From an uncultured Planctomycetaceae bacterium (GTDB lineage Bacteria; Planctomycetota; Phycisphaerae; SM23-33), in the NCBI GenBank assembly GCA_964472875.1, contig CAYYMD010000008.1, positions 2,414-66,413 on the forward strand: a DNA stretch of 64,000 bases, in the 5' to 3' direction. The position numbers and the translations under genes were made by a program. The notes under the pieces are model-generated. The model saw nothing but the letters and a program-made list of their open reading frames with translations. It searched no databases and was not told the origin of the DNA. Below, one piece after another: positions 23,827-54,921 of this stretch. Within the stretch, counting starts at the first letter, position 1. Every line of letters begins with the position of its first letter.

Positions 23827-23989
23827 ACCCACAAAACCCAAACTTTATATGCGTTGCGCTTGTAATATAAGTATAACTTATAAAAACAATTAGATTATAA
23901 GACAATAAAACTTTGAAAAATAACCTAAAATGTAATGGAAGAACCGAGTTAGATATAAGGCAATCGAATATTCAGCACAGGAAGCAGCA

Positions 23990-28535
<4,546 letters not shown>

Positions 28536-28543
<8 letters not shown>

Positions 28544-35060: not shown

Positions 35061-35278
35061 TATATGACAAAGGGACAAATTTTTTTTCAAATTAGCGAGA
35101 CCCTTTTACGCTTGGTGAGTTAAATAATATGTGACGCACGAAATGTCGGGTTCGCCCGCCTAAGGCGTCTCGGCCGCCGAGAAAGCGTGCGGCGTTGCAT
35201 TTCGCGATACAGGATTGACTTGAGGATTTGCAAAAGAAAGACAGCCGGAAATTTTATCGGACCGGCGCAAGTAAATTT

Positions 35279-35839: not shown

Positions 35840-35842
35840 CAG

Positions 35843-36433
35843 ATGAAAAAAATCATATACATTATGGTGGCGGCGATGGCGTTCATATCGTCAGCGCCGG
35901 CGGACGATGCCGGGCCGACGGATGGAGCCCTGGCTGCAAAAAATGACAAAACGGCGTCGAAAAAGACCGCCTACCGCGGCAGCGTTGCGCGACAGTTGAT
36001 GCTCAAGCGGCGGCTGGACCGTATAGCCGAAGGCCGGCTCGCTCTGGCGCTGAACCACAACCGCAGCCAGTGGCAGTCGCTTACGCCCGATGAACGCCAG
36101 GAGTATCGCCGGGCGGTGCTTGCCTACCAGCACCAGGACCCCGAAAAACAGCGGCAGTTGCTTGAACACTACGAGAAACTGATTAAAATGTCGGCCCAGC
36201 GGCGAAAGGCATACCGCCAGAGGGCGAAGTGGCTGGAAGTCGTTGTGAATTCGCTCAGTGACCGGCAGCGGGAAGACCTGAAGCACATGTCGCCGCGCGA
36301 CAGAGCGAAGTTCCTGCTGCAGCGCAAGAAGGAACTTATCGAAAAGGGCGAACTCAAACCGGATGGCCCGGCCACCAAACCGGCCACGACGCAGCCCGAC
36401 GAACAAAAAACGGATTCTGACACAAACGAGTAA
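35843..36433 (+). CDS. Secreted coiled-coil protein, possibly of the Spy/CpxP (LTXXQ-like) periplasmic stress-protein family
   Basis: Signal peptide MKKIIYIMVAAMAFISSAPA. Repeated motifs SLTPDERQEYRR and SLSDRQREDLKHMSPRDRAKF are reminiscent of CpxP/Spy. It is third in the ECF sigma/anti-sigma cluster. Confidence 0.4.
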   Translation: MKKIIYIMVAAMAFISSAPADDAGPTDGALAAKNDKTASKKTAYRGSVARQLMLKRRLDRIAEGRLALALNHNRSQWQSLTPDERQEYRRAVLAYQHQDPEKQRQLLEHYEKLIKMSAQRRKAYRQRAKWLEVVVNSLSDRQREDLKHMSPRDRAKFLLQRKKELIEKGELKPDGPATKPATTQPDEQKTDSDTNE

Positions 36434-39975: not shown

Positions 39976-41076
39976 TCAGATGAACTTTTTCTTTTTCGGC
40001 AGTTTCCCTTTTACGTAGTTCAGGTGGTCCACCACGTTGTCCCACAGGGGGTTGTTTTTTTCCGGTTCCGGTTCGCTGGTGGCCGGTATCATTTCCAGGA
40101 GCTTCTCGAAAGCGGTGTGGGCATCTTCCCACTGTTCGTTCTGCTCGAGCACATAGGCCTTGTGGTACTGGTTAATTACACGGTTTATCAGCTCCGTTTC
40201 GGCCTTGGCGTAAATCCGTTCATCCGCTATTCGCTCGAAATCCGACCGGTTGGTGTAGGCCAGGTAAAGTTTGAAATACTTCACCGACCGATAAAGATTG
40301 CCTGGCTCCTGTTCTATGTTACGGTCTTCGTAGAGCATTCTGGCTTTATTGACTGCCCGCTCGGCTTTTACAGGGTTGCGGTGCTTGTTGGGGATGGGTT
40401 CCCGCAGGATGCTGCGTATTTTATTATCATCGAGTGCGGGCGGCGCCTTTGTTTGAACGGCCGATCCGCCTCGAAGGCGTGACAGAAGGGCGATGACGAA
40501 TATTATCACCCCCATGTAAACGCCGAAAATTATCAGATAGCGTTTGAGTTTCTTCTTTTTCTCCGCCTTCTGTTGCTTTTCCTCTTCGGTCAGCATTTCC
40601 GGCGATTCTTCCTGCTCGTCCTGCTCGGCGGGCTCGGGCGCGGATTTTCTCGGCGGCGGTTTGGGTTTTTCTTCCTCGGGCAGCTCCTGTTGCTCTTGCT
40701 CTTTTTCCTCCGGTGGGGGGGCATGTTCGGCGAGATAGTCGGCTACCGCCTGCTCGACATCGTCGCCGGCGGCTACGAACAATATCTTCGTTTCGCTGCC
40801 GATTTCAAAGACGTCGCCGGTTTCAAGCAGAATTCTCTTTTTGGGCTTTTTGTATTTTTTGCCGTTTATCCTGGTACCGTACGAAGAGAGATTGCGGACG
40901 GACCAACCGTCGGCGGTCAGTTCGAACTGCACCTGTTCTCTGGAGGCGTGCTGTTCATCCAATGTAATATCCGCCTGCGGCGACCTTCCCGCCATAGCGG
41001 AATTGCCGTCAATATCCACTCGGCGGTCTTTCTGCGGGCCTGACATGAAAACCAGTGTCGGAGCGGTCTGAGACAT
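39976..41076 (-). CDS. FHA-domain protein with acidic/Lys-rich linker, single TM helix and a periplasmic TPR-like domain (first gene of the Tad locus as drawn)
   Basis: N-terminal FHA RSPQADITLDEQHASREQVQFELTADGWSVRNLSSYGTRINGKKY...GDVFEIG. The TM helix is LIIFGVYMGVIIFVIALL. The C-terminal helical repeats show YFKLYLAY-type spacing. Confidence 0.6.
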   Translation of the reverse strand: MSQTAPTLVFMSGPQKDRRVDIDGNSAMAGRSPQADITLDEQHASREQVQFELTADGWSVRNLSSYGTRINGKKYKKPKKRILLETGDVFEIGSETKILFVAAGDDVEQAVADYLAEHAPPPEEKEQEQQELPEEEKPKPPPRKSAPEPAEQDEQEESPEMLTEEEKQQKAEKKKKLKRYLIIFGVYMGVIIFVIALLSRLRGGSAVQTKAPPALDDNKIRSILREPIPNKHRNPVKAERAVNKARMLYEDRNIEQEPGNLYRSVKYFKLYLAYTNRSDFERIADERIYAKAETELINRVINQYHKAYVLEQNEQWEDAHTAFEKLLEMIPATSEPEPEKNNPLWDNVVDHLNYVKGKLPKKKKFI

Positions 41077-42050
41077 CAGAACATACCTCCACGAATCATC
41101 CTGATAATCGCCGGGGCGAACACCGCCAGCACGACGCTCATGAGAATCAGCAGGGACGGTATGAGAATCCTGACCGATGCGACGGCGGCAGCATTTTCGG
41201 CCCGGACGCTGCGCCTCAGCCGCAGGAGGTTCGCCTCGGAATGCAGAACGTCGTGCAGCGGCGTGCCGAGTTCTTCGGCCTGGATTACGCTGGCCACGAT
41301 GCTCCGCAGCAGTTCGAGGGGGATTCTGTCGGAGAGGTTTCTAAGCGCCTTGCGTCGGGTGGAGCCCAGTTCTATTTCGGCGATGACGCTTCTTAACTCC
41401 ACGTTCAGAGGGTCGGTTGTGTCGTCTCTTACCACCGACTTGACCGCCTCGGTAAAGGTGGCCCCGGCAGCCATGGCCATTGCTATTAAATCGAGCGTAT
41501 ATGGCAGGCGCTTGGATATTTCGCTGACCCGTTTGGAGGCGGTGTCATGGAGTTTGTACAGCCGCACGAAGATGCCCCCGGCCAGGCCGACCGCTATCAC
41601 AAGAATACTGAACTGGCCGAATGAAAACAGGTAGAGCAGTTCGAGCACTATTCCCATCACAAGACCCGTCAGAACTGACACGGCCAGGTATTCTTCGGCG
41701 GTGTAGTAGTTGGGGCTGCCGGCGGCCGTCAGCCGTTGCCGCAGCCACTGCTTGGCCCGCGGCAAAGCGAGGCGGTGGCTTATCGCCAGCAGCAGCCACA
41801 TTATCGGCTGGAGAACCGGCTGTTCGAAAACGGTCCTGCGGTCGGTGTGTCCGGTGGCAAGGGCCGCCTCCCGCTGTGCAGAGACCTGGATTTTACTTTG
41901 CTGTGCGAAAACGCCGAGTATCAGTGTGGCCACCGCGGCGAACAAGCAGACCGAAATAACCAAGTCCCAGATCATGCTTCCGGGCCCGTAAGTAACCGCC
42001 GGTATCAGGATGTCCGCAAAAATTGTCATATCAGATGTCAACCGCAACAA
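41076..42050 (-). CDS. tadC: Tad/Flp pilus assembly inner-membrane protein TadC (GspF-like domain)
   Basis: T2SS-F-like domain with 3 to 4 TM helices, adjacent to tadB. Confidence 0.7.
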   Translation of the reverse strand: MLRLTSDMTIFADILIPAVTYGPGSMIWDLVISVCLFAAVATLILGVFAQQSKIQVSAQREAALATGHTDRRTVFEQPVLQPIMWLLLAISHRLALPRAKQWLRQRLTAAGSPNYYTAEEYLAVSVLTGLVMGIVLELLYLFSFGQFSILVIAVGLAGGIFVRLYKLHDTASKRVSEISKRLPYTLDLIAMAMAAGATFTEAVKSVVRDDTTDPLNVELRSVIAEIELGSTRRKALRNLSDRIPLELLRSIVASVIQAEELGTPLHDVLHSEANLLRLRRSVRAENAAAVASVRILIPSLLILMSVVLAVFAPAIIRMIRGGMF

Positions 42051-42909
42051 TTTTCTTTATCCACAAAAATCCAAGCACGTTCAGCACTATGATAAGCAGC
42101 AGGATAAGCTTTCCGATACTGTCGACGAACAGCATTCTCACATCTTCGGGCGCGACCATAAGGTACAGGATGGTCAGCACCACCGCCGGCATCGCACCCA
42201 GCCAGCGGGCCGTGGCCCGGCCCTGCGCGGTGAGCGTCTGTACGCGGCTTTCGAGGCGCTGTATCTCCCTGACGCTGTCGGCAATCCGGTCGAGAGTATT
42301 ACCCAGGTTGCCGCCTCTTTGGCGGTGCGTCTGAAGCGCCGAAAACAGCAGCCGGAAATTCCCCGACCCTATACGCTCGGCGGCGTTATCCATCGCCTCA
42401 TCCAGCGACATGCCAAATTCGTATTCCCGCAGCAGGTGGGCGAATTCCTGCCTAAGCGGCCTGGGACCGTCGCGGGCGAGCAGCTCCATCGCCTGCACAA
42501 GATTCAGCCCCGCACGCACGCCCGAGGCGAGGGTCTGCACGCCGCTTACAAGTTGCTCATCGAGCTGATTCAGACGCTTGCGCTGAAGGTAACGAAGCAC
42601 CACCCGAGGAAGCATAATTCCCGCAACGGCGCCCAGAATCCCGCCGATTATCGAACCGGCGATGATGTAGCCCAGCAGAGTCAGCAGTACGAATACCACC
42701 GCAGTGAGTATGGTGACCGTTCGGGGGCTTATGTTAAGCAGCAGCCCGGCACGGAGGACGCGGTAATATCTTTCCTCCCTCCGGTGAACCAACCCCATTA
42801 GCGGTGGCCCGCCGAGGTAAATAGCCGCGGCGGTGGCGATGAACACCACGGCCGAACTTACGGCCGTGGACACGCCAAAAGCCATCATCTGTCCTTCGGC
42901 CCAGGCCAT
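42031..42909 (-). CDS. tadB: Tad/Flp pilus assembly inner-membrane protein TadB (GspF-like domain)
   Basis: GspF-like domain; paired with tadC immediately downstream of the CpaF ATPase. Confidence 0.7.
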   Translation of the reverse strand: MAWAEGQMMAFGVSTAVSSAVVFIATAAAIYLGGPPLMGLVHRREERYYRVLRAGLLLNISPRTVTILTAVVFVLLTLLGYIIAGSIIGGILGAVAGIMLPRVVLRYLQRKRLNQLDEQLVSGVQTLASGVRAGLNLVQAMELLARDGPRPLRQEFAHLLREYEFGMSLDEAMDNAAERIGSGNFRLLFSALQTHRQRGGNLGNTLDRIADSVREIQRLESRVQTLTAQGRATARWLGAMPAVVLTILYLMVAPEDVRMLFVDSIGKLILLLIIVLNVLGFLWIKKIVAVDI

Positions 42910-44789
42910 CAGGTGAACGCTCCTACTTCAAGAAATCCATCTTCTATCAGTGCTTCGGCGAAACGCGGTATATAGCCGGTGTGTCGCAGGCGGGCCTGGG
43001 ATGGGGCCTGTCCTTTAGGTGTGCGGAGGACGTAAATATCTTCGGTTATTATCTGCGAGGTTTCCGGGTCCATGGTTAGTATCTCGGAGATGTGTGTTAT
43101 TCGGCGGCGGCCGTCCGGCATGCGGGCTATTTGCGCAATAATATCCAGCGCCGCCACCACCTGTTCGCGTATGGCTCTCACGGGCATTTCCACGGCCATC
43201 AGTACCATCGTTTCCAGACGCATCAGCATGTCTTCGGGATTGTTGGCGTGAATGGTGGTCAGCGAGCCGTCGTGACCCGTATTCATGGCCTGGAGCATGT
43301 CCAGGGCCTCGGGCCCGCGGCACTCGCCCACGATGAGCCGGTCCGGGCGCATCCGCAGGGCGTTGCGGACGAGGTCGCGGATGGTGTACTGGCCCTTGCC
43401 TTCGATGTTGGCCGGGCGCGTCTCCAGCGACACCAGGTGGTCCTGGGGAAGTTGCAGCTCCGCCGAGTCTTCTATGGTTACAATGCGTTCCTCGGACGGG
43501 ATGAAGTGGCTCAGCACGTTCAGCGTGGTGGTCTTTCCGCTGCCGGTCCCGCCGGAGATTATGATATTTTTGCGGCCGAGCACGCACGCGCGAAGAAAAT
43601 TGGCCGTTGCCTCTGTGAGCGTTTCTCTTTCAATCAGGTCATCAATGGTGAACGGTATCTGGGCGAATTTACGTATGGTAAGCGTCGGCCCCGAAAGTGA
43701 CAGCGGATTAATAACGGCGTTGACGCGCGAGCCGTCGGGCAGGCGCGCATCCACCAGCGGCTGGGAGCGGTCCACCCTCCTGCCCACCGGAGTGATGATT
43801 CGCTCTATGATGCTCTGGACGATTTCATCGGAAAAGAAGCTCCGCCCGGTGTTCTGGACCATGCCGTCTTTTTCGATATAAATCTTGTCCTTGCCGATGA
43901 CCATAATTTCATTGACGTTCGGCATCTCCAGGAGGTCCTGAAGAGGCCCGTAGCCGAGAACAACATCCTCAATTTCCTTGGAGAGCATTCGGCGGACGAT
44001 GTATTCACGCAGTTCGGGCGTGGCTTGCTTGGAAATGCGCTTAATCTGTTCGTCCCAGCCGGACTCGACCATGGAGATGTCTTCCTTGACACTGTGCGGC
44101 GCCAGTTGCAGCGGGAACCGCCCGAGCACGTCGCCCACCATGCGGGAGATTGCTTCTTCGTGCTTGCTCTGGAGCGTGTCGGTTTCGTCGAAGCCGTAAC
44201 TGTACATCAGTTTCCCGGTCGCCCTGCGGGATATCTCGGTAACCACGCTGCGCCACAGGAACTCGCGCATGAGGTGTTCGGCCATGTCCTGGTCGACCTT
44301 GTCATAGTGGGAGTCAATTATGCTCGACAGGTTGCGCTTGATGAGGGCTACGTGTTTTTTGTCCTCGGCCGAGGCCAGGTGAGAAGCCACCCGCAGGTTC
44401 AGCTGCTCCAGAAGCTCGGCATGCATCTGCTGTTCGAGGTCGACGATTTTTTTCCGCGGCGAGACGTCCCGTTTGCCGGCGGCGACGCGCTTGGCCGTGG
44501 GCGCCATCATGTACAGACTGTATTCGCCTATGCGTATTTCGTCGCCGTAGCCGATTTTGCGGCGTTGCCTAGGGCCCACCGGCTTGTTCGTCACAATCGT
44601 GTCATTCAGGCCGAGCGACTCGATGTAAAAACTGCCGCCGTCCCAGAATATGCGGGCGTGTTTCCTGGACACGAAGGGGCTTTTGAGCACGACGTTGTTG
44701 GCGTCGTCCCTTCCTATGGATATATTTTCCCGGTCGACCTGGGTGACCTTGCGCTGGTCTGTGTATTGATTGTAAATCCAGATTTCCAC
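42909..44789 (-). CDS. cpaF: CpaF/TadA-family secretion ATPase fused to an N-terminal FHA domain
   Basis: FHA domain: ISIGRDDANNVVLKSPFVSRKHARIFWDGGSFYIESLGLNDTIVTNK...GDEIRIG. ATPase core: Walker A IISGGTGSGKTT, IVTIEDSAELQL, Walker B LIVGECRG, His box. Confidence 0.9.
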   Translation of the reverse strand: MEIWIYNQYTDQRKVTQVDRENISIGRDDANNVVLKSPFVSRKHARIFWDGGSFYIESLGLNDTIVTNKPVGPRQRRKIGYGDEIRIGEYSLYMMAPTAKRVAAGKRDVSPRKKIVDLEQQMHAELLEQLNLRVASHLASAEDKKHVALIKRNLSSIIDSHYDKVDQDMAEHLMREFLWRSVVTEISRRATGKLMYSYGFDETDTLQSKHEEAISRMVGDVLGRFPLQLAPHSVKEDISMVESGWDEQIKRISKQATPELREYIVRRMLSKEIEDVVLGYGPLQDLLEMPNVNEIMVIGKDKIYIEKDGMVQNTGRSFFSDEIVQSIIERIITPVGRRVDRSQPLVDARLPDGSRVNAVINPLSLSGPTLTIRKFAQIPFTIDDLIERETLTEATANFLRACVLGRKNIIISGGTGSGKTTTLNVLSHFIPSEERIVTIEDSAELQLPQDHLVSLETRPANIEGKGQYTIRDLVRNALRMRPDRLIVGECRGPEALDMLQAMNTGHDGSLTTIHANNPEDMLMRLETMVLMAVEMPVRAIREQVVAALDIIAQIARMPDGRRRITHISEILTMDPETSQIITEDIYVLRTPKGQAPSQARLRHTGYIPRFAEALIEDGFLEVGAFT

Positions 44790-44810
44790 GTTTTTTCCAG
44801 TGTGTGTCGA

Positions 44811-45617
44811 TTATCTCCGGAAGCCGCCGCCACCTGTGGACGCCCGCTCGGTCAGTGGCTCCAGCGTCGGATTTATTCTGGGCTTGGACAGCGAGGATTC
44901 CTTGGAACTGTTGACGTAAATCCAGGCAGCGCCTTTTTTGTGACTCAGGACGTTTTCCAGTTTCTTCGCCAGTTCGGGGTCCATCTGAAGCGTTATCGAT
45001 TTATACGTCCGGGGAACTTTAACGCCGGATCTTGTGCCCCTGGGCTGGTATTCCTCCCGCGGGTACTGGCCGCCTATCGCCAGAACAGGCACGTTCTCTA
45101 TAACCCGGCAGGTGGTATATGTATCGCCCACGGGAAGAACCGCCAGCACATCGACCCTGTCGCCCCAGCTAAGTACGGTGCCCGGGGCCTTGTCCGGGTC
45201 GACTTCTATGGTGACGGCCGACATGTTCTTGGGAATGTTATAACTGGGCCGGTCTTCTCCGCCGCCGGTGACGTGTCCCCACAAAACATATTGTCCCTTG
45301 TTCACGTTCCTTGTGAGTCTCTCGCCGTCGAGGAAGGACTTTTTCGTCGAGGGGACAGGATTCGGCAGCACGTCGTACACATCCTCCGGCACGGTTACGG
45401 TGCGGATGTCTTCTTCGGCTTCGATTTCGTGGCCGAGGGTTAGATACTTGTTATACTTGAGAAGTTTTACGGTTTCGCCCCTTGCGGCGCTGCGGACGTG
45501 TGCGACGTGCACATTGTAGATTATCACCACAATCACCGCCAGCACCAAGGCGGTTATCAACAGTCCCTTGTTCTTTATTCCAGGTTTGCCTTCGCCGTTG
45601 TCATTATCCTGGGCCAT
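44811..45617 (-). CDS. cpaB: Flp pilus assembly protein CpaB/RcpC (SAF domain)
   Basis: N-terminal TM anchor followed by SAF/CpaB-like beta-rich domains. Confidence 0.7.
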   Translation of the reverse strand: MAQDNDNGEGKPGIKNKGLLITALVLAVIVVIIYNVHVAHVRSAARGETVKLLKYNKYLTLGHEIEAEEDIRTVTVPEDVYDVLPNPVPSTKKSFLDGERLTRNVNKGQYVLWGHVTGGGEDRPSYNIPKNMSAVTIEVDPDKAPGTVLSWGDRVDVLAVLPVGDTYTTCRVIENVPVLAIGGQYPREEYQPRGTRSGVKVPRTYKSITLQMDPELAKKLENVLSHKKGAAWIYVNSSKESSLSKPRINPTLEPLTERASTGGGGFRR

Positions 45618-45632
45618 TAATGTCTCCTGTTG

Positions 45633-46253
45633 TTATTCGGCGGGCCGTACCGCCATAAATTCTATACGTATTATTTTCTCAAGAGTCGGACAGTTTCGCA
45701 ACCGTAGTATCAGCAATACTGTCCCGCCGTCGTCGTTGCGGATAAAAATATCTTTATCCGGGGATGCTTTACGGTCGCCGGCAGGAGGTGAATAGAATCC
45801 CATATCCCGTGCGATTTGCCGGTAATGTTCGCGTGTAGAAGTTTTGCTTGCCGGGCAGAGATAGCTTGCATGCTGGTAAAGATGTCCTCCCACGATCCGG
45901 CTGAAGGCGGCCTGTTTGACAGCACGGAGGGGTGGCGGGATTTTGGCCGGGTCGCCTTCCATTTGTTTGAGATTATTTCGTGCAGCCGTTGCGGGGTTTT
46001 CGGCCGATTCGAGCAGACCCTCAATTGCCATTGACGAAGGCGTCTGCGAAGTACTATCGCCGCCAACTGCCCCCGTATCGCCGGGAACGGACGGCCGATT
46101 CGCATCGCCGCCGGCGGTGAAAAATATATATGCCTGCCAGGCGGCGAAAACCACGGCTACCAGCAGGCAGAAATACAATATCGACTTCCAGAATAATTTT
46201 CGCCTGGCCGATTTCTCCTGCTCGGCGCTTTCGGCGTAATTAGGTGCATTCAT
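45633..46253 (-). CDS. Hypothetical membrane-anchored protein of the Tad locus
   Basis: Single N-terminal TM (SILYFCLLVAVVFAAWQAYIFF); no recognisable motifs; conserved operon position. Confidence 0.4.
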   Translation of the reverse strand: MNAPNYAESAEQEKSARRKLFWKSILYFCLLVAVVFAAWQAYIFFTAGGDANRPSVPGDTGAVGGDSTSQTPSSMAIEGLLESAENPATAARNNLKQMEGDPAKIPPPLRAVKQAAFSRIVGGHLYQHASYLCPASKTSTREHYRQIARDMGFYSPPAGDRKASPDKDIFIRNDDGGTVLLILRLRNCPTLEKIIRIEFMAVRPAE

Positions 46254-46267
46254 GGCGTGATTAGTCT

Positions 46268-46897
46268 CTACCAGTTGACAAGGTATAAATCGCGGAACGT
46301 TTTCCCCATATCGGTGCCGGGTTGAGAAACGTTGCTTAGGGTCTGATCAAGTTCCGAAAAGTAGACTTCGGAAAGTTCTTTCCAGCACCGGGCCTCGTTA
46401 CGGCGCCACTGTCTCCCGTCGCGGATGTGATAACTTTGCATCGGCCCGGTTATGAACTGACGCCAATAACTCTGTGGTGGGGGGAATTCCACCGTCAATT
46501 CCGTGCCATGGCCACGGGGGTATTTTTCGACAACAGTTTCGCGCACAAATTCTTCGGCGGGGCTGTAATCTTCGCCCGATTTGGCGGCCAGTGCGTGCAG
46601 TGTATCTTCGGGGCCGTCGCTGTTTCTTCGGTGGACTATTTCCCCGCCGCCGGAAAGGAACAAATCCTCCAGCCGAAGACCGGATGGCCATCCTCCCCCC
46701 TTGGCGCTCTTCCAGGCCGAGTATCTGCTGGCGATCTTCACCTGCTGTTTATTCCTGTTGGCCCAGCCGAAAAAGAAAATCAGACTGATTATCATCGCCA
46801 GAAACGGAATGCTGACCACCGTCTCGAAGATTGCGCTGCCGGACTGTTTATGCCGACGCCGGCGGTGCGGGAAAGTTGTTTTTATAAGTTTGTGCAT
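46268..46897 (-). CDS. TadE-like pseudopilin/assembly protein
   Basis: N-terminal TadE-like segment SGSAIFETVVSIPFLAMIISLIFFFGW. Confidence 0.6.
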   Translation of the reverse strand: MHKLIKTTFPHRRRRHKQSGSAIFETVVSIPFLAMIISLIFFFGWANRNKQQVKIASRYSAWKSAKGGGWPSGLRLEDLFLSGGGEIVHRRNSDGPEDTLHALAAKSGEDYSPAEEFVRETVVEKYPRGHGTELTVEFPPPQSYWRQFITGPMQSYHIRDGRQWRRNEARCWKELSEVYFSELDQTLSNVSQPGTDMGKTFRDLYLVNW

Positions 46898-46918
46898 GTT
46901 TCAGTGTTATTTTGCGAA

Positions 46919-48997
46919 TCAGTGCTTAATGTACATCTCGGCCATGTCCTCGTCCACGGCCATCATGTACTCATATACCTTTTGCAGTTCGTCGTAAGTC
47001 AACAGGTGGCCGACCGAATCTATCTCCGATGAGCCCTCGTCGAGCCGCCAGGCCCAGTCCCGCCACTTGCTAACGGGCATCAGAGCGGTTTGCCAGTCCT
47101 GTGTCCACAAATCGAAACTTGAATTATTGAACACCTTGGATTGCGATACCGCCACCATTTGTTCGGCAGGGTTGGGGTTTTGGAAACGGTTCGACCAGAC
47201 CGTGCTGACGTCCCCGGCTCCGCCGACGCCAAGGTAGGTAAAGTATTCCCTGCGGAAACCCTCGTCGGGGTCCGAGCGGTATTCAGGCGCCGGGCCAGGA
47301 TCGTAATCGCCTGTGGAGGTGTCCAGCAACATAGGCGCCGGCAGTTCCGCGTACTGGTCCCAGTTACACGGATTGTCTATTTCCACCTCCGCGCCTACGT
47401 CAATACCGCCGAATGTATACCACGCAACCACGTAGACATCCTGGAACAGCGGCTCGCCGGTCATAGGATCGACTTTTTCCTGAATGCCTATCCGGTGATC
47501 ATAGGTGGTCTGGTAGGTGTAACTGTCTTTCCAGACGTAATTAGATACCATCGGCACCGACCAGTTCTCCGGGTCGTTCCAGCCGGGAGTCCAGATTGAG
47601 ATGGGATACTTGCCGTTGGTGTAATATGTTCCGGGGCTGAGCCAGTTGGGTGAATTCTCCGGAACGGAAGACACTATCTCCACCAGATAAAACATGGTGC
47701 GGTCAACACTCACATCATTGCGCTGGGCCGTTTCTCGCGCGGTGGGGTAATCCGTTATCCATTGTGGGTAATGTATGGTCTGCCGTGTTCCTGAGTCAAA
47801 CATGTAGCCCAGTTTGATGTCGGCGATTTTGCGGATGTAATGATAAAAATAGGTATCGGGCAGTTTGCCGCGGTGGTGCCGGCCGTGATCATACGCCCAC
47901 CAGTTTATGCGATCCATCGCCCAGTGATAAGGACCTTCAGCGCCATACCCGATGTGTACACGGTTAGTTACATTTCTCCAGTGTCCCGGGCGTCCTCCGC
48001 TTCTCTGTTTGGCCGAGGCCCCGACGCGCCTGCCGCCCACGTTCACGCTACCGCTGCCGCCTCTGACAAGCGGACCGGGGGTGCCCGGCACCCATTCCCT
48101 TCCGATTACCTCGGTCCTGTACAGAGGGTATCGCCAGCGATACAGGCGGGCCCACGGGCCCAGGCGGTGAGGCCACTGGCCGTCGGGAATAGCCCCGCCA
48201 CGTCCGCCGGTGTATCTGAATGTCGCGCAGTTGCTGTAAACGTGTTCACGTCCCTGGAGCGTGGGCTGGTAATCGCGAAACTCGCCGCGTTTTGCCGGTG
48301 GCCGCGGCACAACGGGAATCAGAAAGGCCGTATCGGTCTCGTTGGCCTGTCCGAATTGAACGGCATCGGCCTGCGCCAGCATGCCCGCGGCCTCAATGGC
48401 GGACTGCGAAAAATTATCCAGTGTGGTTACCGCCTGCCAGAATTTGCCGTTAGGCGGCGCGCTGCCTCCGCCGCGGATTGCCCAGTGCGTGGTCTGGTCC
48501 ATCTCGAAGCCACCCTGGTTAAGTGCCTCGTTCATGGCCGAAAGAATCTCGCTCTGGTGAAGCATTCTTTGGCGGAGAGATTCGAGCCCTTCGGTGAGGT
48601 ATGTCTCCGGTGTGCCCCGCGACACCTGGTTGCTTAGGGCCTGTTCCCAGGCCTGCAACTCTTCTGCCGACATCTGGACCGAAAGCGGCAGTGCATCCAT
48701 AATCGGAACCATTGCCAGAATGCGCGAAGACGCCACGTTGTTCATGGCCACCAGGTTCAGCGTGCGGGCTATCCAGCCGCCGCCGCTCACGGCCGCGGCA
48801 TCGGCGGTGTTCTGGCATTCCAGGCGCCGGTTGGCCTGGACCCCCATGTTCAGGACGTAAAACACCACTCCCACCAACAGCGTCATGGCCAGCAGCAGCA
48901 CCACCAGTATCTGCCCGCCGGCTTTTCGGCCGGGATATGGACGCCGGGCCCGAATGGCTACTTTCTGTTTCGATGCGATTTTTTTACCGTTCTGCAT
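46919..48997 (-). CDS. tadG: TadG-like large pilus-assembly protein (Tad/TadE-G-like N-terminal domain)
   Basis: 692 aa. N-terminal TM plus GQILVVLLLAMTLLVGVVFYVLNMGVQANRRLECQNTADAAAVSGGGWIA matches the TadE/G-like N-terminal family, followed by a long extracytoplasmic region. Confidence 0.6.
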   Translation of the reverse strand: MQNGKKIASKQKVAIRARRPYPGRKAGGQILVVLLLAMTLLVGVVFYVLNMGVQANRRLECQNTADAAAVSGGGWIARTLNLVAMNNVASSRILAMVPIMDALPLSVQMSAEELQAWEQALSNQVSRGTPETYLTEGLESLRQRMLHQSEILSAMNEALNQGGFEMDQTTHWAIRGGGSAPPNGKFWQAVTTLDNFSQSAIEAAGMLAQADAVQFGQANETDTAFLIPVVPRPPAKRGEFRDYQPTLQGREHVYSNCATFRYTGGRGGAIPDGQWPHRLGPWARLYRWRYPLYRTEVIGREWVPGTPGPLVRGGSGSVNVGGRRVGASAKQRSGGRPGHWRNVTNRVHIGYGAEGPYHWAMDRINWWAYDHGRHHRGKLPDTYFYHYIRKIADIKLGYMFDSGTRQTIHYPQWITDYPTARETAQRNDVSVDRTMFYLVEIVSSVPENSPNWLSPGTYYTNGKYPISIWTPGWNDPENWSVPMVSNYVWKDSYTYQTTYDHRIGIQEKVDPMTGEPLFQDVYVVAWYTFGGIDVGAEVEIDNPCNWDQYAELPAPMLLDTSTGDYDPGPAPEYRSDPDEGFRREYFTYLGVGGAGDVSTVWSNRFQNPNPAEQMVAVSQSKVFNNSSFDLWTQDWQTALMPVSKWRDWAWRLDEGSSEIDSVGHLLTYDELQKVYEYMMAVDEDMAEMYIKH

Positions 48998-49037
48998 ATT
49001 ACAGTAAATTATAGGCGTCGCGCCAGGCCCGAAACCT

Positions 49038-51764
49038 CTATTGCTCGAGTTGTTGCCGGGCCTGGGCTATGAGGGACTTCACCTCGTCGGTGTCTTTGTA
49101 TCTTTTGGCTATATTGAAATAGGCAATTGCGCCCTTGTAGTCATTGGCGTTCATTGCCTCACGACCTTTTTGGAGATTTTCCTCATAGTGGATTTCATCC
49201 GACAGCGCCTGAGTTTCTTTCGTATCGTTAATGTCCCGTGCCTGCTTGACGAGTTCCTTGGCATTAGCGAATTCGCGGTTTTCCAAAGCCGTCTTGGCCT
49301 GTGAGAGGTAGGATTTATACTTTCTCTCCCGCGTGGTTCTGGCCAGTTCAGCCGTGACCAGTTCTTTCTTGGAAGGGTCAATACTCCTGGCTTGTTCGAA
49401 TGCCGTGATGGCTTCTTTGTAATCGCCGTTGGCGCGGTGTTTTCTGCCTTCGTTAATTTTGATGCGGCTGCGACAGTCTTTTATTTTATCTTTGAGGGAA
49501 CTGTCGCTTTTGATTTTTGCGGCCTGCTGGTACAGTTCCAGGGCCTGTTCCCACTGTCCCTTGTTGTGGAGGCCGTCGGCCCGCCTGAGCAATCCCGCAA
49601 AGTCCTGTTCGCGGATTATCCTGTTGCGAAGCGATTTTGCCGCGGAGTTATCGGGATTATCGGCGAGTATTTTCTCCAGTTCCTTCAGCGCCTGGTCGTA
49701 TTTATTTTCGTCGTAGAGGCGCCGGGCACTGGTCAGCGACATTTCCGATTTGAGCCGGCTTATTTGATTCTCGAGTTCGGCTGACGGCTTGATATTGTTG
49801 GCCTTTTCCAGTGCTTCTATGCGGGCCGCCGTGTCGTTGTTCTGTTCGGCCTGGCGCGCCTCGGACATGGCGGCGGCGTAGCGGCTTTCCCTGTCCAGTT
49901 TTTCAATTTTTTCTTCTACAGTCTTCTGCAATTGGTTCCGCCGGGTAGCGGATAATTCCCGCGCAGTTTCGCTCTCGAGCATGGCCAGGGCGTCCTGGTA
50001 GGCAGTCCTCGCGGCAACGTAGTCGTCCTGGCCAAGCATTTCGTCGCCTTTGGAGACGTGCTCTTTAAACTGCTTTTCGAATTTCTTTTGTGTTGCCTCG
50101 GCCCTGAGTTGTCTCAGCCGCTGACGCTGCAGGGAAGTGAGCGTTAGGTTGGAGAGGTATTCGAGATTGTCTTCGGCCTCTGCGAAACGTTCCTCCTCGA
50201 GCGCGTTTTCAGCAGTTTGTATTTTGTCTTCGAAATCGCGGGTGTTCAGGCGATATTCCTCAAAGTCCCGGATTACGTTATCCATACGTGTGGTCCATTC
50301 CACGAACAGTTGGTTCTCGCTGCGCGCCTGAAGCTGCTGGATTCGTTCCGTGGCGTTGGATTCCTCCGCTGCCGCGGCGCTCCAGTTGCCGCGCAGTACG
50401 TTTATGTGTCCTCTGCACAGGTGAACCCATACGGATGCCTTGGCCGACTGGATGGTTCCTTTGAATCGCTGCTTTGTGGTCAGGTCCTGGAACCCGGCGA
50501 TGGCCTCGCGAAGTTTCTCGATGGCCTGATCCTTTTGGCCGATGTCGCGGGCCTCCAGGGCCTTTTCAAAATCGTCTTTGGCTTCCTCGAATGCCTGGGT
50601 GGCGGTTTTGCGCAGATTGGTCGCCTCCATGTGCTGTTTTACACCCCATGACACGCCGATGCCGATGATGCTTACTACAATAACGCCCAGCAATACGAGT
50701 TTTGTTCGCCTGGAGAGACCCTTGGAAGGAACGGGGGCGGTCGGCGGAGGGCCCTGCGGTTCTCGGGCTTCTTCGGCGGCTTCTTCGCCTTCACCACCGG
50801 CGGGTTGTTCGCCCGGCTGCTCCTGCGGCTGCATTTCTTCAGGAGGTCCGCCCACAGGCCCTGCCTGTGTCCCGCGGGCATGCCCCGAAAAGGCAGAGCG
50901 TATCGCCCTGCCCAGGATCTCCATATTTTCAAAACGCTGGTCGCGGTCCTTGGCCATCATTTTCGAGACGATGTCCGAAAGTGGCTTGGGCACCGAGGGA
51001 TTAATCTCGTGTGCTGGCGGGGCCTGGACTTTTTCGTTTCCGTGCCACTTCATCCAACGCAGGGCCTCGCTGTGGCGGTCACGCACAATATCCTGGAATA
51101 TTTCGTTGAACTTGTCCCTGCCTATGAGCATCTCGTAGGCGATAAAGCCCAGGGAATAAACATCCACCCGCTCGTCTATGTCCGTGCCGGCGAACAGTTC
51201 CGGGGCCATGTATTTGGTCGTGCCCAGCGGCAGAGACTCCTGGCCGGTTAATGTGGCGGCCACGCCGAAGTCGGTAATCTTCGCCCGCAGTCCCTCGCCG
51301 ACGATAATGTTGCCGGGTTTTATGTCGCGATGGATGATTCCCGCCGAGTGAACTGCGTTAAGCGCGGCGGCCAGTCGCCAGATTATCTGAAGCGTTGCCT
51401 TGGGGTCTACCGGCTGGCGGTTTTCCTCCAGAGACTGCTCCAGTGTGTGCCCTGCCACGAATTCCATAACAATAAACTGGCCTTGCTCGGTTTCCAGCAG
51501 TTCGTAGATATTGACAATGCCCGGCTGCTCCGGCGCAAGTTTGGCGAGGATTTGCGCCTCCTTGCGGAATCGCTTGAGCGATTCCTCGTCGGCGGCCAGT
51601 TGCATAGGCACCTGTTTGATGGCGACATTCCTGTCGAGCGTCGGGTCGTAACACTTATAGACGACGGCCTGTCCGCCGATTCCGAGCCGCTTGCGAACTT
51701 CGTATTTGCCGATTTTCGTGCCGGTCGGCATTCCCGGACCTTGTTGCGAGTTATTCTCAGGCAT
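49038..51764 (-). CDS. Hanks-type Ser/Thr protein kinase, single-pass, with a large periplasmic TPR-repeat domain
   Basis: Kinase subdomains LGIGGQAVVYKCYD, VAIKQV, HRDIKPGNIIV, DFGVA and TTKYMAPE. A Pro/Glu-rich linker and the TM helix LVLLGVIVVSIIGIGVSWGV precede a C-terminal region of about 550 aa of TPR-like repeats (AIAYFNIAKRYKDT etc.). Confidence 0.9.
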   Translation of the reverse strand: MPENNSQQGPGMPTGTKIGKYEVRKRLGIGGQAVVYKCYDPTLDRNVAIKQVPMQLAADEESLKRFRKEAQILAKLAPEQPGIVNIYELLETEQGQFIVMEFVAGHTLEQSLEENRQPVDPKATLQIIWRLAAALNAVHSAGIIHRDIKPGNIIVGEGLRAKITDFGVAATLTGQESLPLGTTKYMAPELFAGTDIDERVDVYSLGFIAYEMLIGRDKFNEIFQDIVRDRHSEALRWMKWHGNEKVQAPPAHEINPSVPKPLSDIVSKMMAKDRDQRFENMEILGRAIRSAFSGHARGTQAGPVGGPPEEMQPQEQPGEQPAGGEGEEAAEEAREPQGPPPTAPVPSKGLSRRTKLVLLGVIVVSIIGIGVSWGVKQHMEATNLRKTATQAFEEAKDDFEKALEARDIGQKDQAIEKLREAIAGFQDLTTKQRFKGTIQSAKASVWVHLCRGHINVLRGNWSAAAAEESNATERIQQLQARSENQLFVEWTTRMDNVIRDFEEYRLNTRDFEDKIQTAENALEEERFAEAEDNLEYLSNLTLTSLQRQRLRQLRAEATQKKFEKQFKEHVSKGDEMLGQDDYVAARTAYQDALAMLESETARELSATRRNQLQKTVEEKIEKLDRESRYAAAMSEARQAEQNNDTAARIEALEKANNIKPSAELENQISRLKSEMSLTSARRLYDENKYDQALKELEKILADNPDNSAAKSLRNRIIREQDFAGLLRRADGLHNKGQWEQALELYQQAAKIKSDSSLKDKIKDCRSRIKINEGRKHRANGDYKEAITAFEQARSIDPSKKELVTAELARTTRERKYKSYLSQAKTALENREFANAKELVKQARDINDTKETQALSDEIHYEENLQKGREAMNANDYKGAIAYFNIAKRYKDTDEVKSLIAQARQQLEQ

Positions 51765-51795
51765 TAATTAATATTTCCGTTATATCTTTTATAGT

Positions 51796-52686
51796 TCATT
51801 CGTCCCACGTCTCGACGTCGACATAATCCTGCGGTCCTTCGTTCGGCATGCGGCAGTGTGCGACTATGTCAATACCATAATCGCCGGCGCCGAAGTCCAG
51901 TTGCTTTCCGCCGCTTAAGACCGCAAAAACCCGGTCGGCATACGGCACCGATAAATACAGCGTATGTCTGACGGTTACTTTAAGGTCCTCATCCTTGGCG
52001 TATTTGTTGCCGCCACCGGCGGGCGGGGCCAGTGTAACGTCCGTATACTGGCGGGCGTAGTAAAGTTTTTTGCCCAGGTAATCCCTGGCCCACTTGGGCG
52101 TTGTTTTATTATAACGGCTGAACAGCTGCTGCAGCCCTTGCTGAAGTACGGCCGAATCTCCATCCGGCAATTCTTCGCTGGATGATGACACAGGCAACAC
52201 TGCCCATACGGCCGCATCCTCTATCATCCGCATCTTGGGCGATGCGTCGCCGGGGTACACTTCGTTGGGCGGCTCTTGGGGGAAGATATTCATCGGCACC
52301 GCCACGACCGCGCTGCGCGCTCCGCAGTAAGCCGCATAATGAACGGACATGTTTCCTGTCATCAGAAACATGCACTGGGTCATTATCATAACCAGCATAA
52401 GAGCAAACGGCAGCACCAGTGCGAATTCAAGTATCGCAACACCGCTTTGCGGGGATGGCCTTCGCCGGCGCCGTCCGGCCATCCACATCACACCGCACAG
52501 TCCAACCAGGGCCACGGCGCAAAACAGCATTACAACCCCGGCCAGTATGGAAATCCTGCTGAACAGTGCACGTCGTATCCACGGCGTTTTCGCGGCGGCA
52601 AATACGGCGGCCGCGCCGGCCGAAAGCAGCAGCACCGCAACGGCTGCGATAAACGCAACACGTCCTGTTCGCCATTTGCCGTTCAT
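51796..52686 (-). CDS. TadE-like protein with extra N-terminal TM segment
   Basis: SGVAILEFALVLPFALMLVMIMTQ matches the TadE N-terminal motif, preceded by an additional hydrophobic segment. Confidence 0.55.
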   Translation of the reverse strand: MNGKWRTGRVAFIAAVAVLLLSAGAAAVFAAAKTPWIRRALFSRISILAGVVMLFCAVALVGLCGVMWMAGRRRRRPSPQSGVAILEFALVLPFALMLVMIMTQCMFLMTGNMSVHYAAYCGARSAVVAVPMNIFPQEPPNEVYPGDASPKMRMIEDAAVWAVLPVSSSSEELPDGDSAVLQQGLQQLFSRYNKTTPKWARDYLGKKLYYARQYTDVTLAPPAGGGNKYAKDEDLKVTVRHTLYLSVPYADRVFAVLSGGKQLDFGAGDYGIDIVAHCRMPNEGPQDYVDVETWDE

Positions 52687-52689
52687 AAT

Positions 52690-53277
52690 TTAAAATCCAA
52701 GAATACCCCTGGCCGCCGGACCACCGAGCAGAACATCGACCAGTGCCCCGGCAGCGCCGATACAAAGCGCCAGGCCGAAAGGTATTTTAGGGCTCTCCGG
52801 CGAAGAGGGGCCCGCCGGTTTGCCCCGCGCAAACAAAAGGTAAAGGAATCGCAGTATCCGGCCCAGTGTGCGTTTTGTTATTTTCTTTTTCAACATTACC
52901 GCCAGGGCCATCACAGCGGCGACCGCAAAACCGTAAAAAAGAGTCGCCAGCGCCACTCCCGTGCCGCCGAGAGCGCCGACAGCGGCCATAAGTTTCACAT
53001 CGCCGCCGCCTATGCCTCCGGCCAGCCACGCCAGAAGTAGTGGCCCTGCGCCTACCAATACGCCCAGGGCCGCGCCGGCCAAACCTATGGACGCTGCCGA
53101 CTGTTTGCCGCTTATCCCGCCCAGGAATGTATGGCCGACGAGTCCGACGATTAAAGCCGGATATGTTATCACATTGTATATTTTGCCGCTGCGAACGTCG
53201 ACAATTGCGGATAACAACACCACTACGCCAAGAATCACAAGCGGCCAGTATTTGGCGAAATCAAACCACACACGCAA
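52690..53277 (-). CDS. tadV: Prepilin peptidase of the A24 family (CpaA/TadV type)
   Basis: 195 aa polytopic membrane protein. The conserved Asp context SAIVDVRSGKIYN and second Asp region resemble CpaA. Confidence 0.75.
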   Translation of the reverse strand: MRVWFDFAKYWPLVILGVVVLLSAIVDVRSGKIYNVITYPALIVGLVGHTFLGGISGKQSAASIGLAGAALGVLVGAGPLLLAWLAGGIGGGDVKLMAAVGALGGTGVALATLFYGFAVAAVMALAVMLKKKITKRTLGRILRFLYLLFARGKPAGPSSPESPKIPFGLALCIGAAGALVDVLLGGPAARGILGF

Positions 53278-53324
53278 ACCTCAGTCGGCGTCGCGCAATT
53301 TCAAACCGTTGATGAAAAGGCCGA

Positions 53325-53537
53325 CTAATCGGGCATAGTTTCTTCGGCGGATCCTCTGATCCGGCTGAAAAGATCGAGCACCCATTGCTTGATATCGCCG
53401 CCGAACCACACTACCAGCCCAAGCAGAGGCAGGGCGATGGCGGCTATGACAAGGATATACTCAATCATGTCAGCGCCTTGTTGGTCCCGATTGAGTGTGC
53501 GGAGTTTATTCATCATGCGTTTTACATTTTTTTTCAT
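53325..53537 (-). CDS. flp: Flp/Fap pilin (Flp1)
   Basis: 70 aa. Leader MKKNVKRMMNKLRTLNRDQQG, then ADMIEYILVIAAIALPLLGLV matching the Flp G/XXXXEY processing motif. RBS GGAGAGG upstream of the ATG at 53537. Confidence 0.8.
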   Translation of the reverse strand: MKKNVKRMMNKLRTLNRDQQGADMIEYILVIAAIALPLLGLVVWFGGDIKQWVLDLFSRIRGSAEETMPD

Positions 53538-53590
53538 TGGTTTCACCTCTCCGGCCGGTAACTTACAAATACTTCCTTCCTCGCCGGCCG

Positions 53591-53776
53591 TTACGGGAAG
53601 GGAAGGGTATGCAGAAATACCACCATACCGTAATGCACTGCCAGTAAATCCAGCAGCATTCTTATAACGTAAGCCATCGGCAACACGAAGGCCGCCAGTA
53701 GAAGCGCCCATTCTATGGTCGTCTGCCCCGCCTGGTTGGTTGCCGAAAGCGAGAAAAATTTTGCTATTGCCGTCAC
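53591..53776 (-). CDS. flp: Flp-like pilin variant (Flp2) with E-W in place of E-Y
   Basis: 61 aa. Leader ...ATNQAG then QTTIEWALLLAAFVLP. Start overlaps the upstream ATPase stop by 4 nt. Confidence 0.65.
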   Translation of the reverse strand: MTAIAKFFSLSATNQAGQTTIEWALLLAAFVLPMAYVIRMLLDLLAVHYGMVVFLHTLPFP

Positions 53777-54921
53777 TTCGCCACCGTTTCTTTATCGGCA
53801 TCCGCCGATGCCGCATCGAAAATTTCTTTCGTCAAATTCATCGAATTCCGAAGCATCCTGATTTTCGGCTCCCTGGAGAACGTGGATTGTTCTCCGGTCC
53901 ACCGCAGTTTTCCGGTTTCGTCCTTGGCCCTGGTGTCGTCGCCAAGACGATAGGAGAAGATATCCTTTACCTGGTACCTGCCCTCGGTGTCCAGCGGCAG
54001 GACCTCCGCCAGTTGTGTTATCTTCCTGCTTCCGTCGGAAAAACGCGTGGTCAGGGCTATAACATCAATGGCCGAGGCAATTTGTGCCCGCAGGGCATAA
54101 AGTGGCAACTCGACCTTTGACATCATCGCCAGCGTCTCCAGGCGGTTCAGCGCGTCCATGGCCACGTTTGCGTGCAGCGTGGACATGCTTCCGGCATGGC
54201 CGGAGGTCATCGCCTGTATCATGTCCAAGGCTTCGCCGCCGCGGACCTCGCCGATTACCACGCGGTCCGGCCTTAGCCGCAGAGACGAGCGGAACAGGTC
54301 GCGGATGGTTACTTCGCCGCGGCCCCAGCGGTCAGGCGGGCGCGACTCAAGCGATATCACGTGCTCCTGCTGCATCTGCAACTCGGCCGAGTCCTCTATC
54401 ACAACTATACGCTGGTGGTGGGGGATGAAACTGCTCAGGACGTTCAGCAGGCACGTCTTGCCGCTGGAGGTGCCGCCGGCAACGAGTATGTTCTTCTCGC
54501 CCAGCACGCATATCTTCAGATATTCCTCTGCCTGTTCGGTCCACGTTCCAAGCTCCACCAGGTGGTCGGCGTCGAAGGCGGTGCGGGCGAACTTTCTTAT
54601 GGTCATGCACGTGCCGTGGCGGGAAAGCGGTGCCATGATTATGTGCACCCTGCTGCCGTCCGGAAGGCGGGAGTCCATCAGCGGAAGTTCCGGGTTCATG
54701 CGCTTTCCGGTGTATTGGAGCACGTTGTTGACGGCCACCATCAGCGCGTCGGCGTCTTCGAATTTCGCATCGGTTTTTGTAATTTTGCCGGACCGCTCTA
54801 TGTAAATCTCATTCGGATTGTTTATCATGATTTCCGAAACTTCCGGATCCCGGACATACTCTATAACCGGCTCAAGAAAGTGCTCTATGGTACTTTCGTA
54901 AATGTTCGTATTTGCCGACAT
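53773..54921 (-). CDS. cpaF: Second CpaF/TadA-family ATPase (minimal, 382 aa, no FHA domain)
   Basis: Walker A LVAGGTSSGKTCLLN, VVIEDSAELQM, Walker B VVIGEVRGGEA. First gene of the minus-strand Tad operon. Confidence 0.9.
   Translation of the reverse strand: MSANTNIYESTIEHFLEPVIEYVRDPEVSEIMINNPNEIYIERSGKITKTDAKFEDADALMVAVNNVLQYTGKRMNPELPLMDSRLPDGSRVHIIMAPLSRHGTCMTIRKFARTAFDADHLVELGTWTEQAEEYLKICVLGEKNILVAGGTSSGKTCLLNVLSSFIPHHQRIVVIEDSAELQMQQEHVISLESRPPDRWGRGEVTIRDLFRSSLRLRPDRVVIGEVRGGEALDMIQAMTSGHAGSMSTLHANVAMDALNRLETLAMMSKVELPLYALRAQIASAIDVIALTTRFSDGSRKITQLAEVLPLDTEGRYQVKDIFSYRLGDDTRAKDETGKLRWTGEQSTFSREPKIRMLRNSMNLTKEIFDAASADADKETVAK

Follow-up and report, generated by a model that had tools for sequence, protein, structure and literature searches.

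A Tad/Flp pilus operon with an embedded Ser/Thr kinase and two FHA proteins in a Phycisphaerae genome

Layout of the operon and identity of its parts

The sequence analyzed here, referred to below as the window, is a 64-kb stretch of contig CAYYMD010000008.1 from an uncultured member of the Phycisphaerae. Between positions 39976 and 54921, on the minus strand, it carries 14 co-directional genes that encode a Tad/Flp pilus apparatus together with a Hanks-type Ser/Thr kinase, two proteins with FHA domains, and two CpaF-type ATPases. All 14 were confirmed at the coordinates listed below. Intergenic gaps do not exceed 53 nt and several junctions overlap, by 1 nt in the case of FHA-cpaF/tadB and of tadC/FHA-TM (TM, transmembrane), and by 4 nt where the GTG start of flpA runs into the stop of cpaF2. 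It should be noted that the TTG start of tadC is uncertain, and that an alternative ATG seven codons downstream is possible. The upstream border is formed by a divergent CNNM/CBS transporter gene; a simple sigma-70 promoter scan upstream of cpaF2 gave nothing useful. At the other end, the last gene is followed by a weak terminator-like hairpin, and a 433-nt spacer separates the operon from trmD-rplS. From first gene to last, the operon comprises:

53773..54921, minus strand: cpaF2, a short CpaF-type ATPase of 382 aa (T2SSE E = 1.6e-57)
53591..53776, minus strand: flpA, a Flp-like prepilin of 61 aa with a G|QTTIEW site
53325..53537, minus strand: flpB, a Flp prepilin of 70 aa with a G|ADMIEY site
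52690..53277, minus strand: tadV, an A24-family prepilin peptidase of 195 aa (Peptidase_A24 E = 1.5e-13)
51796..52686, minus strand: tadE1, a TadE-like minor pilin (TadE PF07811 E = 2e-6, residues 82-124)
49038..51764, minus strand: the Hanks-type Ser/Thr kinase, 908 aa (Pkinase E = 3.7e-52, plus TPR families including TPR_2)
46919..48997, minus strand: a TadG-like large pilin-like protein of 692 aa (PF13400 Tad E = 1.3e-4)
46268..46897, minus strand: tadE2, a second TadE/F-like minor pilin with a G|SAIFE site
45633..46253, minus strand: "hyp," a conserved bitopic protein in which an N-terminal TM helix is joined by a disordered linker to a small alpha/beta domain in the periplasm
44811..45617, minus strand: cpaB/rcpC (RcpC E = 1.4e-13; TIGR03177)
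42909..44789, minus strand: the FHA-CpaF motor ATPase, 626 aa (FHA 62 bits; T2SSE E = 2.8e-60)
42031..42909, minus strand: tadB, a platform protein (T2SSF E = 1.7e-21)
41076..42050, minus strand: tadC, a platform protein (T2SSF E = 4e-18)
39976..41076, minus strand: an FHA-TM-helical-repeat protein of 366 aa, referred to as FHA-TM (FHA 41.4 bits)

The gene identities given in the original prediction, which was made from the sequence alone, are correct when judged by Pfam and NCBIfam searches, prepilin motifs, and orthologous loci. Overall, 11 of the 14 assignments lie at or above curated Pfam/NCBIfam thresholds. The TadG-like protein passes marginally (PF13400, 22.7 bits; cutoff 22.3) and CpaB scores 82.8 bits with TIGR03177 pilus_cpaB (cutoff 71); for cpaF2, the nearest NCBIfam model is TadA TIGR03819, and the match falls below its cutoff. 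The small pilins are the difficult cases, and here the orthologous loci are useful, including L001 (GCA_049975485), L002 (GCA_039680605), L083 (a JGI metagenome), and L084 (an ENA metagenome). The flpB product is sub-threshold with Flp_Fap (E = 9.3e-6, 25.8 bits; cutoff 32.2) and also with Flp1_like (7e-5); its orthologues are 43-48 % identical, and those in L083 and L084 give weak Flp matches. There is no Pfam or NCBIfam match for flpA, which is 55-60 % identical to the genes at the same position in L001 and L002. Neither tadE2 nor "hyp" from the window has a Pfam match, and the tadE2 orthologues in L001 and L002 (32-34 % identity) give weak TadE matches.

What identifies the apparatus as Tad is the combination of two CpaF/TadA-family ATPases, separate and adjacent single-domain TadB and TadC, short Flp pilins with a G|xxxxE(Y/W) site, a TadV without a methylase, TadE/TadG-type pseudopilins, and RcpC/CpaB. 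The translation of tadV, which has no methyltransferase domain, contains a GGGDVKL motif. TadE1 has an unusual leader of ~81 aa before its G|VAILEF site, with two hydrophobic (TM-like) segments and an RRRRR stretch (window 52441-52686); both the long leader and the full length are conserved in the L001 orthologue. The TadG-like protein has no sequence relative in the PDB and is 52 % identical to its L002 orthologue. In L001, the orthologue is a 921-aa protein (L001:12868-15633) with a Golvesin_C domain that the 692-aa protein of the window does not have, a difference that points to variable tip or adhesin modules.

For "hyp," a word-based homologue search gave two sequences and the structure model is of modest confidence, so that its predicted DcrB/PA1624-like fold is a lead only. 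We also considered whether "hyp," TadE2, or the TadG-like protein could be a cryptic secretin and rejected all three: they are too small or pilin-like, none matches PF00263, and the predicted fold of "hyp" is a small alpha/beta domain. FHA-TM and "hyp" resemble neither a secretin nor a pilotin.

Relatives of the gene block and its missing components

The 14 genes occur in identical order at five other loci, namely L001, L002, L003 (Phycisphaeraceae), L083, and L084. The flanking genes differ at every one of the six syntenic loci, and the kinase holds a fixed position inside the pilin gene block in all six. Protein identity to L001 and L002 runs from 71 % (FHA-CpaF) down to 29 % ("hyp"), and to the more distant L003 it is 19-63 %. 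Because the same gene order is found between different flanks, the block is best regarded as a selected, self-contained module and not as a chance juxtaposition. The suggestion of a variant typical of one planctomycete lineage (Phycisphaerae) is supported. Full-length orthologues of the kinase number at least 116 (~900 aa, 36-44 % identity), and all named ones come from Planctomycetota/Phycisphaerae metagenome-assembled genomes (MAGs). For FHA-TM, a word-based homologue search gave six sequences, and a library clustered at 50 % identity contained 154 full-length relatives at E <= 1e-30. One local departure was seen in L002, where a 23S_rRNA_IVP (PF05635) gene (L002:20511-20783) is inserted between tadB and tadC of the otherwise syntenic locus.

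A wider comparison was made by scanning genome contigs with FHA-CpaF, which gave, among the matches listed, 80 CpaF loci from many phyla. The scan missed the closest orthologues (the best match was 54 %); the set of 85 loci used below consists of these 80, the window, L001, L002, L083, and L084. All were annotated with home-made local hidden Markov models (HMMs) anchored on Pfam-verified seeds. The TadZ HMM was a single-round, domain-trimmed model built from ten Pfam-verified TadZ proteins; all ten genes sampled directly upstream of a non-FHA CpaF encode TadZ/CpaE, with a receiver domain and AAA_31/ParA. Counts and distributions reported for this set refer to the matches listed.

The clearest result concerns TadZ, which is found at 0 of 26 FHA-CpaF loci versus 57 of 59 others (p = 7.5e-20). 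Its absence from all 26 is therefore a property of the FHA-CpaF class. The original prediction had linked the loss of TadZ to the planctomycete envelope; this does not hold, as the loss is shared by every FHA-CpaF locus of the set, across phyla, and the loci with FHA-CpaF come from Planctomycetota, Lentisphaerota, Myxococcota, and others. Within 10 kb, a Hanks kinase is encoded at 7 of 21 FHA-CpaF loci versus 1 of 59 others (p = 2.4e-4), a count that excludes the window and two loci that were fetched via the kinase itself. The kinase-positive FHA-CpaF loci include one from Deltaproteobacteria (L025), one labelled Chromatiales (L057), and other bins; in Phycisphaerae L007 and L023 the kinase gene follows the FHA-TM gene and is not among the pilin genes. 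An FHA-TM gene stands directly after tadC in the window and in L001-L003, L007, L015, L023, L025, L045, L072, L083, and L084. A second, short CpaF is present at 10 of 24 FHA-CpaF loci versus 1 of 59 others. It should be noted that the FHA-CpaF of L004, a contig labelled Anaerolineales, is 53 % identical to that of the window and groups inside the planctomycete clade, which suggests either a mis-binned contig or horizontal transfer.

Secretins have a different distribution. Among the matches listed, nine non-planctomycete loci have a secretin gene as the immediate upstream neighbor of FHA-CpaF (confirmed by Pfam for L025 and L045), and all eight planctomycete FHA-CpaF loci with adequate flanks have CpaB upstream and no secretin. 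The retention of CpaB does not imply a secretin, because monoderm-type Tad loci (56 loci) usually have CpaB and no secretin.

Absence searches in the window covered all plausible open reading frames (ORFs) of at least 150 aa. In agreement with the original prediction, both the locus and the whole 64 kb are without secretin, TadZ, and TadD by Pfam and local HMM searches. No ORF in the window matches Secretin PF00263, and the local secretin HMM finds none in the window, L001-L003, L005, L007, L009, or L023; the Pfam gene tables of L083 and L084 list none either. Likewise, the window has no ParA/AAA_31/CbiA match that could represent TadZ/CpaE, and no match to the local TadZ HMM. No separate TPR lipoprotein (TadD) was found in the operon or elsewhere in the 64 kb. 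TPR-like regions in the window are limited to the ectodomains of the kinase and FHA-TM, both inner-membrane anchored. It had been proposed that these regions substitute for TadD. However, TadD serves as pilotin for the secretin, and the idea was rejected because there is no secretin at the locus to pilot; the inner-membrane anchoring of both proteins and an unspecific fold search also leave it unsupported. As for passage through the outer membrane, the filament either uses a secretin encoded elsewhere or needs none.

Kinase, FHA proteins, and proposed control of the motors

The kinase consists of a cytoplasmic kinase domain, a variable linker, one TM helix (~residues 355-375), and a ~530-aa helical/TPR ectodomain. 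Across the 116 full-length orthologues, conservation is at least 90 % for the motifs GGQxxYK, VAxKQ, HRDxKPxNI, DFGVAA, and LGTTKYMAPEL. With all catalytic motifs retained, the protein is catalytically intact and not a pseudokinase. The activation-loop TT (182/183) is also invariant. The linker is low-complexity and unconserved apart from a T-A-x-(L/I/V)-P site ~10 residues before the TM helix, which in the window reads T342-A-P-V-P346 (window 50721-50741, minus strand). T342 and P346 are invariant (116/116), A343 is found in 106 of 116 orthologues, and position +3 is occupied by L, I, or V in every case. The sequence pT-x-x-(I/L/V), where pT is phosphothreonine (pThr), is the classical type of FHA ligand. 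Because it is invariant inside an otherwise unconserved linker, the T342 motif is a candidate pThr docking site for FHA domains, and it is the most specific sequence-level hint of a kinase-FHA partnership.

Both FHA regions are genuine FHA domains, as had been predicted: they pass the Pfam threshold (cutoff 20.7 bits) and keep the pThr-binding residues, that is, Gly-Arg, Ser-x-x-His, and Asn(-Gly). The FHA fold matches bona fide pThr readers, among them GarA, FhaA, EmbR, and DgcB. In the FHA-CpaF motor, the FHA domain occupies residues 23-88 (62 bits) and is followed by a ~170-aa linker and the T2SSE domain at residues 281-556; the core matches the Caulobacter crescentus CpaF structures 8rkd and 9e24 (E ~4e-102), and the pThr-contact residues GR, SRxH, and N are conserved in orthologues. 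In FHA-TM, a cytoplasmic FHA domain (41.4 bits) and an acidic linker precede the single TM helix, and the TPR/MIT-like domain on the periplasmic side carries an invariant LYRSVKYFKLYLAY motif. The model of this periplasmic domain is confidently helical (predicted local distance difference test, pLDDT, above 90), and a fold search gave no specific match.

The two ATPases keep the Walker A and B motifs and the Asp and His boxes, so both are apparently active. CpaF2 has no FHA domain, linker, or three-helix-bundle region, with nothing N-terminal to the N-terminal domain (NTD). In a rough neighbor-joining tree, the CpaF2 proteins branch together as a single deep clade, distinct from every other CpaF protein, with members in the window (53773-54921), L003:1-1014, L005:2695-3810, L009:2291-3529, L010:15159-17879, L023:1493-2680, L025:18244-19344, and L072:18772-19830. 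Among the matches listed, ATPases of this clade are seen only in FHA-CpaF loci, in several phyla, a distribution that suggests an ancient second motor dedicated to the FHA-CpaF class. In a Myxococcota MAG (L010:14551-17879), an ORF of ~907 aa seems to have a CpaF2-like ATPase fused behind an N-terminal region with an FHA domain, so that in this relative both motors would appear to carry FHA domains.

Taken together, we regard it as probable, although by no means assured, that the 14 genes specify a self-contained filament machine of type IVc (Tad/Flp) that belongs to the FHA-CpaF class and has a Phycisphaerae-like form, with pThr/FHA switching in place of TadZ. That the pilus is phospho-regulated is something we infer; support for a functional link between kinase and FHA proteins is indirect and comes from the strict synteny, the kinase enrichment, the invariant TxxΦP (Φ, hydrophobic), and the mutual exclusion of FHA-CpaF and TadZ. 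In the proposed sequence of events, the kinase would sense a periplasmic, envelope, or surface cue via its ~530-aa ectodomain and would autophosphorylate, probably on T342 in the T-A-x-Φ-P site (the prime candidate) and on the activation-loop TT. At the TadB/C platform, these pThr sites would then bring in FHA-CpaF and the FHA-TM scaffold or activate them, and pilus assembly would be switched on where and when the signal is present. The pThr/FHA module would thus take over the motor-positioning role of the receiver-ParA protein TadZ. CpaF2 is probably a second motor with a distinct role, for example, in retraction or with a different substrate, although this is speculative. The secretin that non-planctomycete relatives keep upstream of FHA-CpaF would have been lost from this locus.

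Several points weigh against this reading. The 85 loci are phylogenetically non-independent, several of their contigs are short, and the tree was built by neighbor joining only. No kinase lies within 10 kb of FHA-CpaF in the Pirellulaceae loci L005 and L009 or in Victivallales L045, and FHA domains can therefore evidently work with unlinked kinases or without one. The searches for secretin, TadZ, and phosphatase reach the window and the locus flanks only, and no PP2C-type phosphatase was found in the window or in four Pfam-annotated orthologous loci. FHA-TM also passes the Yop-YscD_cpl model (36.1 bits; cutoff 33.2), and the FHA-like domains of the SctD proteins of type III secretion systems are phospho-independent scaffolds. 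The role suggested for CpaF2 is drawn from the PilB/PilT analogy only.

Among the alternatives, the one that survives best, although we consider it unlikely, is that there is no surface pilus at all. The genes would instead form a short periplasmic (pseudo)pilus or endopilus that acts as a piston or tether within the enlarged periplasm of planctomycetes, in secretion or in the uptake of macromolecules, or a filament that exits via a non-secretin structure of the envelope. No secretin was found in the 64 kb, nor in the 6-10 kb around the five orthologous and three other planctomycete loci; non-planctomycete relatives keep theirs directly upstream of FHA-CpaF; CpaB without a secretin is normal in monoderm-type Tad loci; and two motors could serve extension and retraction. 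However, the planctomycete envelope includes an outer membrane, and secretin genes are present elsewhere in the phylum (PMC7397252). The combination of a large TadG-like protein with two Flp pilins is characteristic of surface fibers, and a gene missing from one locus is weak evidence. A slightly lower probability attaches to an unnamed Tad class in which TadZ is replaced by pThr docking between the juxtamembrane TxxΦP site of a membrane Hanks kinase and the FHA domains of CpaF and of an inner-membrane scaffold, and in which a dedicated second ATPase is used, with a planctomycete branch that has no dedicated secretin and whose fiber works in the enlarged periplasm or passes via a planctomycete-specific structure of the envelope such as the crateriform pits, for example, in the capture or import of polymers.

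Less likely again would be an ordinary Tad pilus whose secretin, TadZ, and TadD are encoded elsewhere, with the kinase and FHA domains providing minor modulation. In Planctomycetia, where Tad genes have been noted only in genome descriptions, PilQ/RcpA secretins and TadZ are reported beside them (PMC7397252, PMC11279305); Tad genes and those of the Kil system of Myxococcus can be split over several loci (PMC8460266; bioRxiv 10.64898/2026.07.08.737194); and the absence of the parts is established for the 64-kb window only. Against this stands the TadZ distribution: with none at the 26 FHA-CpaF loci and a copy beside CpaF at 57 of 59 others, the absence is systematic and not due to gene scattering. 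The boundaries of the 14-gene block are also conserved in six genomes with different flanks, and the kinase keeps its position within the pilin gene block. Finally, it is least likely that the kinase has its substrates mainly outside the system, or is a general envelope-stress kinase, and that the FHA domains are phospho-independent scaffolds like those of SctD/YscD: the Yop-YscD_cpl match, the several FHA-CpaF loci without a nearby kinase, and the lack of a phosphatase in the operon fit this, but both FHA domains keep the Arg/Ser/Asn pThr contacts, TxxΦP is invariant in the kinase linker, kinases are enriched at FHA-CpaF loci across phyla, and the kinase gene is fixed in position at six loci despite 37-44 % identity.

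Tad pili are among the most widespread machines for adhesion and colonization, and the positioning and switching of their single motor are mainly understood via TadZ and polar landmarks. The operon and the comparison of loci point to a second, apparently exclusive solution to motor control based on pThr/FHA signaling, often with a cluster-encoded kinase and a second motor. If this is true, the operon offers a concrete candidate for the upstream signaling cascade postulated for Myxococcus Kil, and the kinase/FHA "contact switch" of type VI secretion systems (T6SSs) is extended to type IV filaments. The block represents a conserved, previously unstudied envelope machine in more than 100 planctomycete lineages, and the lack of a linked secretin bears on how a fiber would pass through the unusual envelope of planctomycetes. 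Through the invariant T342 motif and the FHA residues, the hypothesis is open to a direct test.

Two other gene groups in the window may be mentioned. A nitrogen-assimilation block (17340-29960) contains a sigma-54 activator with a GAF domain, an ammonium transporter, glnA, and both subunits of glutamate synthase, of which the large one has 1517 aa. A few kilobases downstream of the end of the operon, on the opposite strand (34506-36433), an extracytoplasmic function (ECF)-type sigma factor gene is followed by genes for DUF3379-like and DUF3106-like small proteins, probably a sigma/anti-sigma module.

Comparison with known systems

The original prediction called the system previously uncharacterised, and this stands in part. 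The building blocks and the regulatory logic of the operon have precedents, as both the FHA-CpaF class and Kil are already described. What appears to be undescribed is the kinase-embedded, dual-motor configuration without TadZ or secretin, and its breadth in Phycisphaerae. In a literature search of incomplete coverage, we found no paper on a Hanks kinase in a Tad operon, on this Phycisphaerae cluster, or on the exclusion between FHA-CpaF and TadZ, and no study devoted to Tad systems of planctomycetes or Phycisphaerae.

With the canonical flp-tad-rcp locus of Aggregatibacter actinomycetemcomitans and the cpa locus of C. crescentus, the operon shares Flp pilins (G|xxxxEY in those systems), TadV, TadE/F/G-type proteins, RcpC/CpaB, a CpaF/TadA ATPase, TadB, and TadC. 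It differs in having no RcpA/CpaC secretin, RcpB/CpaD, TadZ/CpaE, or TadD; in having two ATPases rather than one bifunctional motor; and in the addition of the kinase, two FHA domains, and the bitopic "hyp." Its FHA-CpaF resembles class III CpaF proteins in domain order (FHA, a linker/three-helix-bundle region, then the CpaF NTD and CAD). That class, defined as FHA-IDR-CpaF (IDR, intrinsically disordered region), is described as "mostly found in betaproteobacteria," and partner kinases, loss of TadZ, and a second ATPase are not mentioned (PMC12019362).

The resemblance to the PpkA/Fha switch of T6SSs, which had also been proposed, is one of design principle. The T6SS pathways (PpkA/PppA/Fha1 in Pseudomonas aeruginosa, TssL-Fha in Agrobacterium tumefaciens) and type VII secretion systems (T7SSc/d) share with the operon a single-pass membrane Hanks kinase in the cluster, with a sensor domain outside the cytoplasm, and an FHA domain on or next to the ATPase or scaffold; modules of a membrane kinase and an FHA-EssC ATPase are predicted for T7SSc/d (PMC11217815). 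The machines themselves are unrelated, with a contractile sheath or an EssC translocon instead of a type IV filament. Membership in a T6SS is not supported: no T6SS genes or PP2C were found in the window or the annotated orthologous loci, and the TagH model gives 41.5 bits (cutoff 120), a likeness at the level of the FHA domain only. In the Sulfolobus archaellum, ArnA/ArnB and the ArnC/D kinases control expression, the motor carries no fused FHA domain, and arn genes are never inside type IV pilus or archaellum loci (PMC4858521). In Bdellovibrio, tad loci lie near FHA and TPR genes (bioRxiv 10.64898/2026.07.08.737194).

A further close parallel to the operon is Kil of Myxococcus xanthus, a Tad-like apparatus for contact-dependent prey killing in which KilF is an FHA-CpaF protein (PMC8460266, PMC12075869). 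The likeness is known from descriptions of gene content and architecture, and it does not imply predation for the operon. Both have a Flp pilin, minor pilins, a prepilin peptidase, a CpaB homologue, and a TadB/C-type platform; both have an FHA domain fused N-terminally to the motor and further FHA proteins in the cluster, and neither has TadD. TadZ is not mentioned for Kil, and no kinase is described in its clusters (PMC8460266). Only Kil has a short secretin (KilC) and a split into two clusters, with a single ATPase described and no TadG, whereas the operon is one compact unit that has no secretin and includes a Hanks kinase gene in its interior, a gene for a TadG-like protein, and two for CpaF-type ATPases. 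Kil assembly is triggered by contact with prey and does not occur at a fixed pole, and its authors invoke a PpkA/Fha-like cascade (PMC8460266); in the planctomycete operon, a kinase that could play a part in such a cascade is encoded among the pilin genes.

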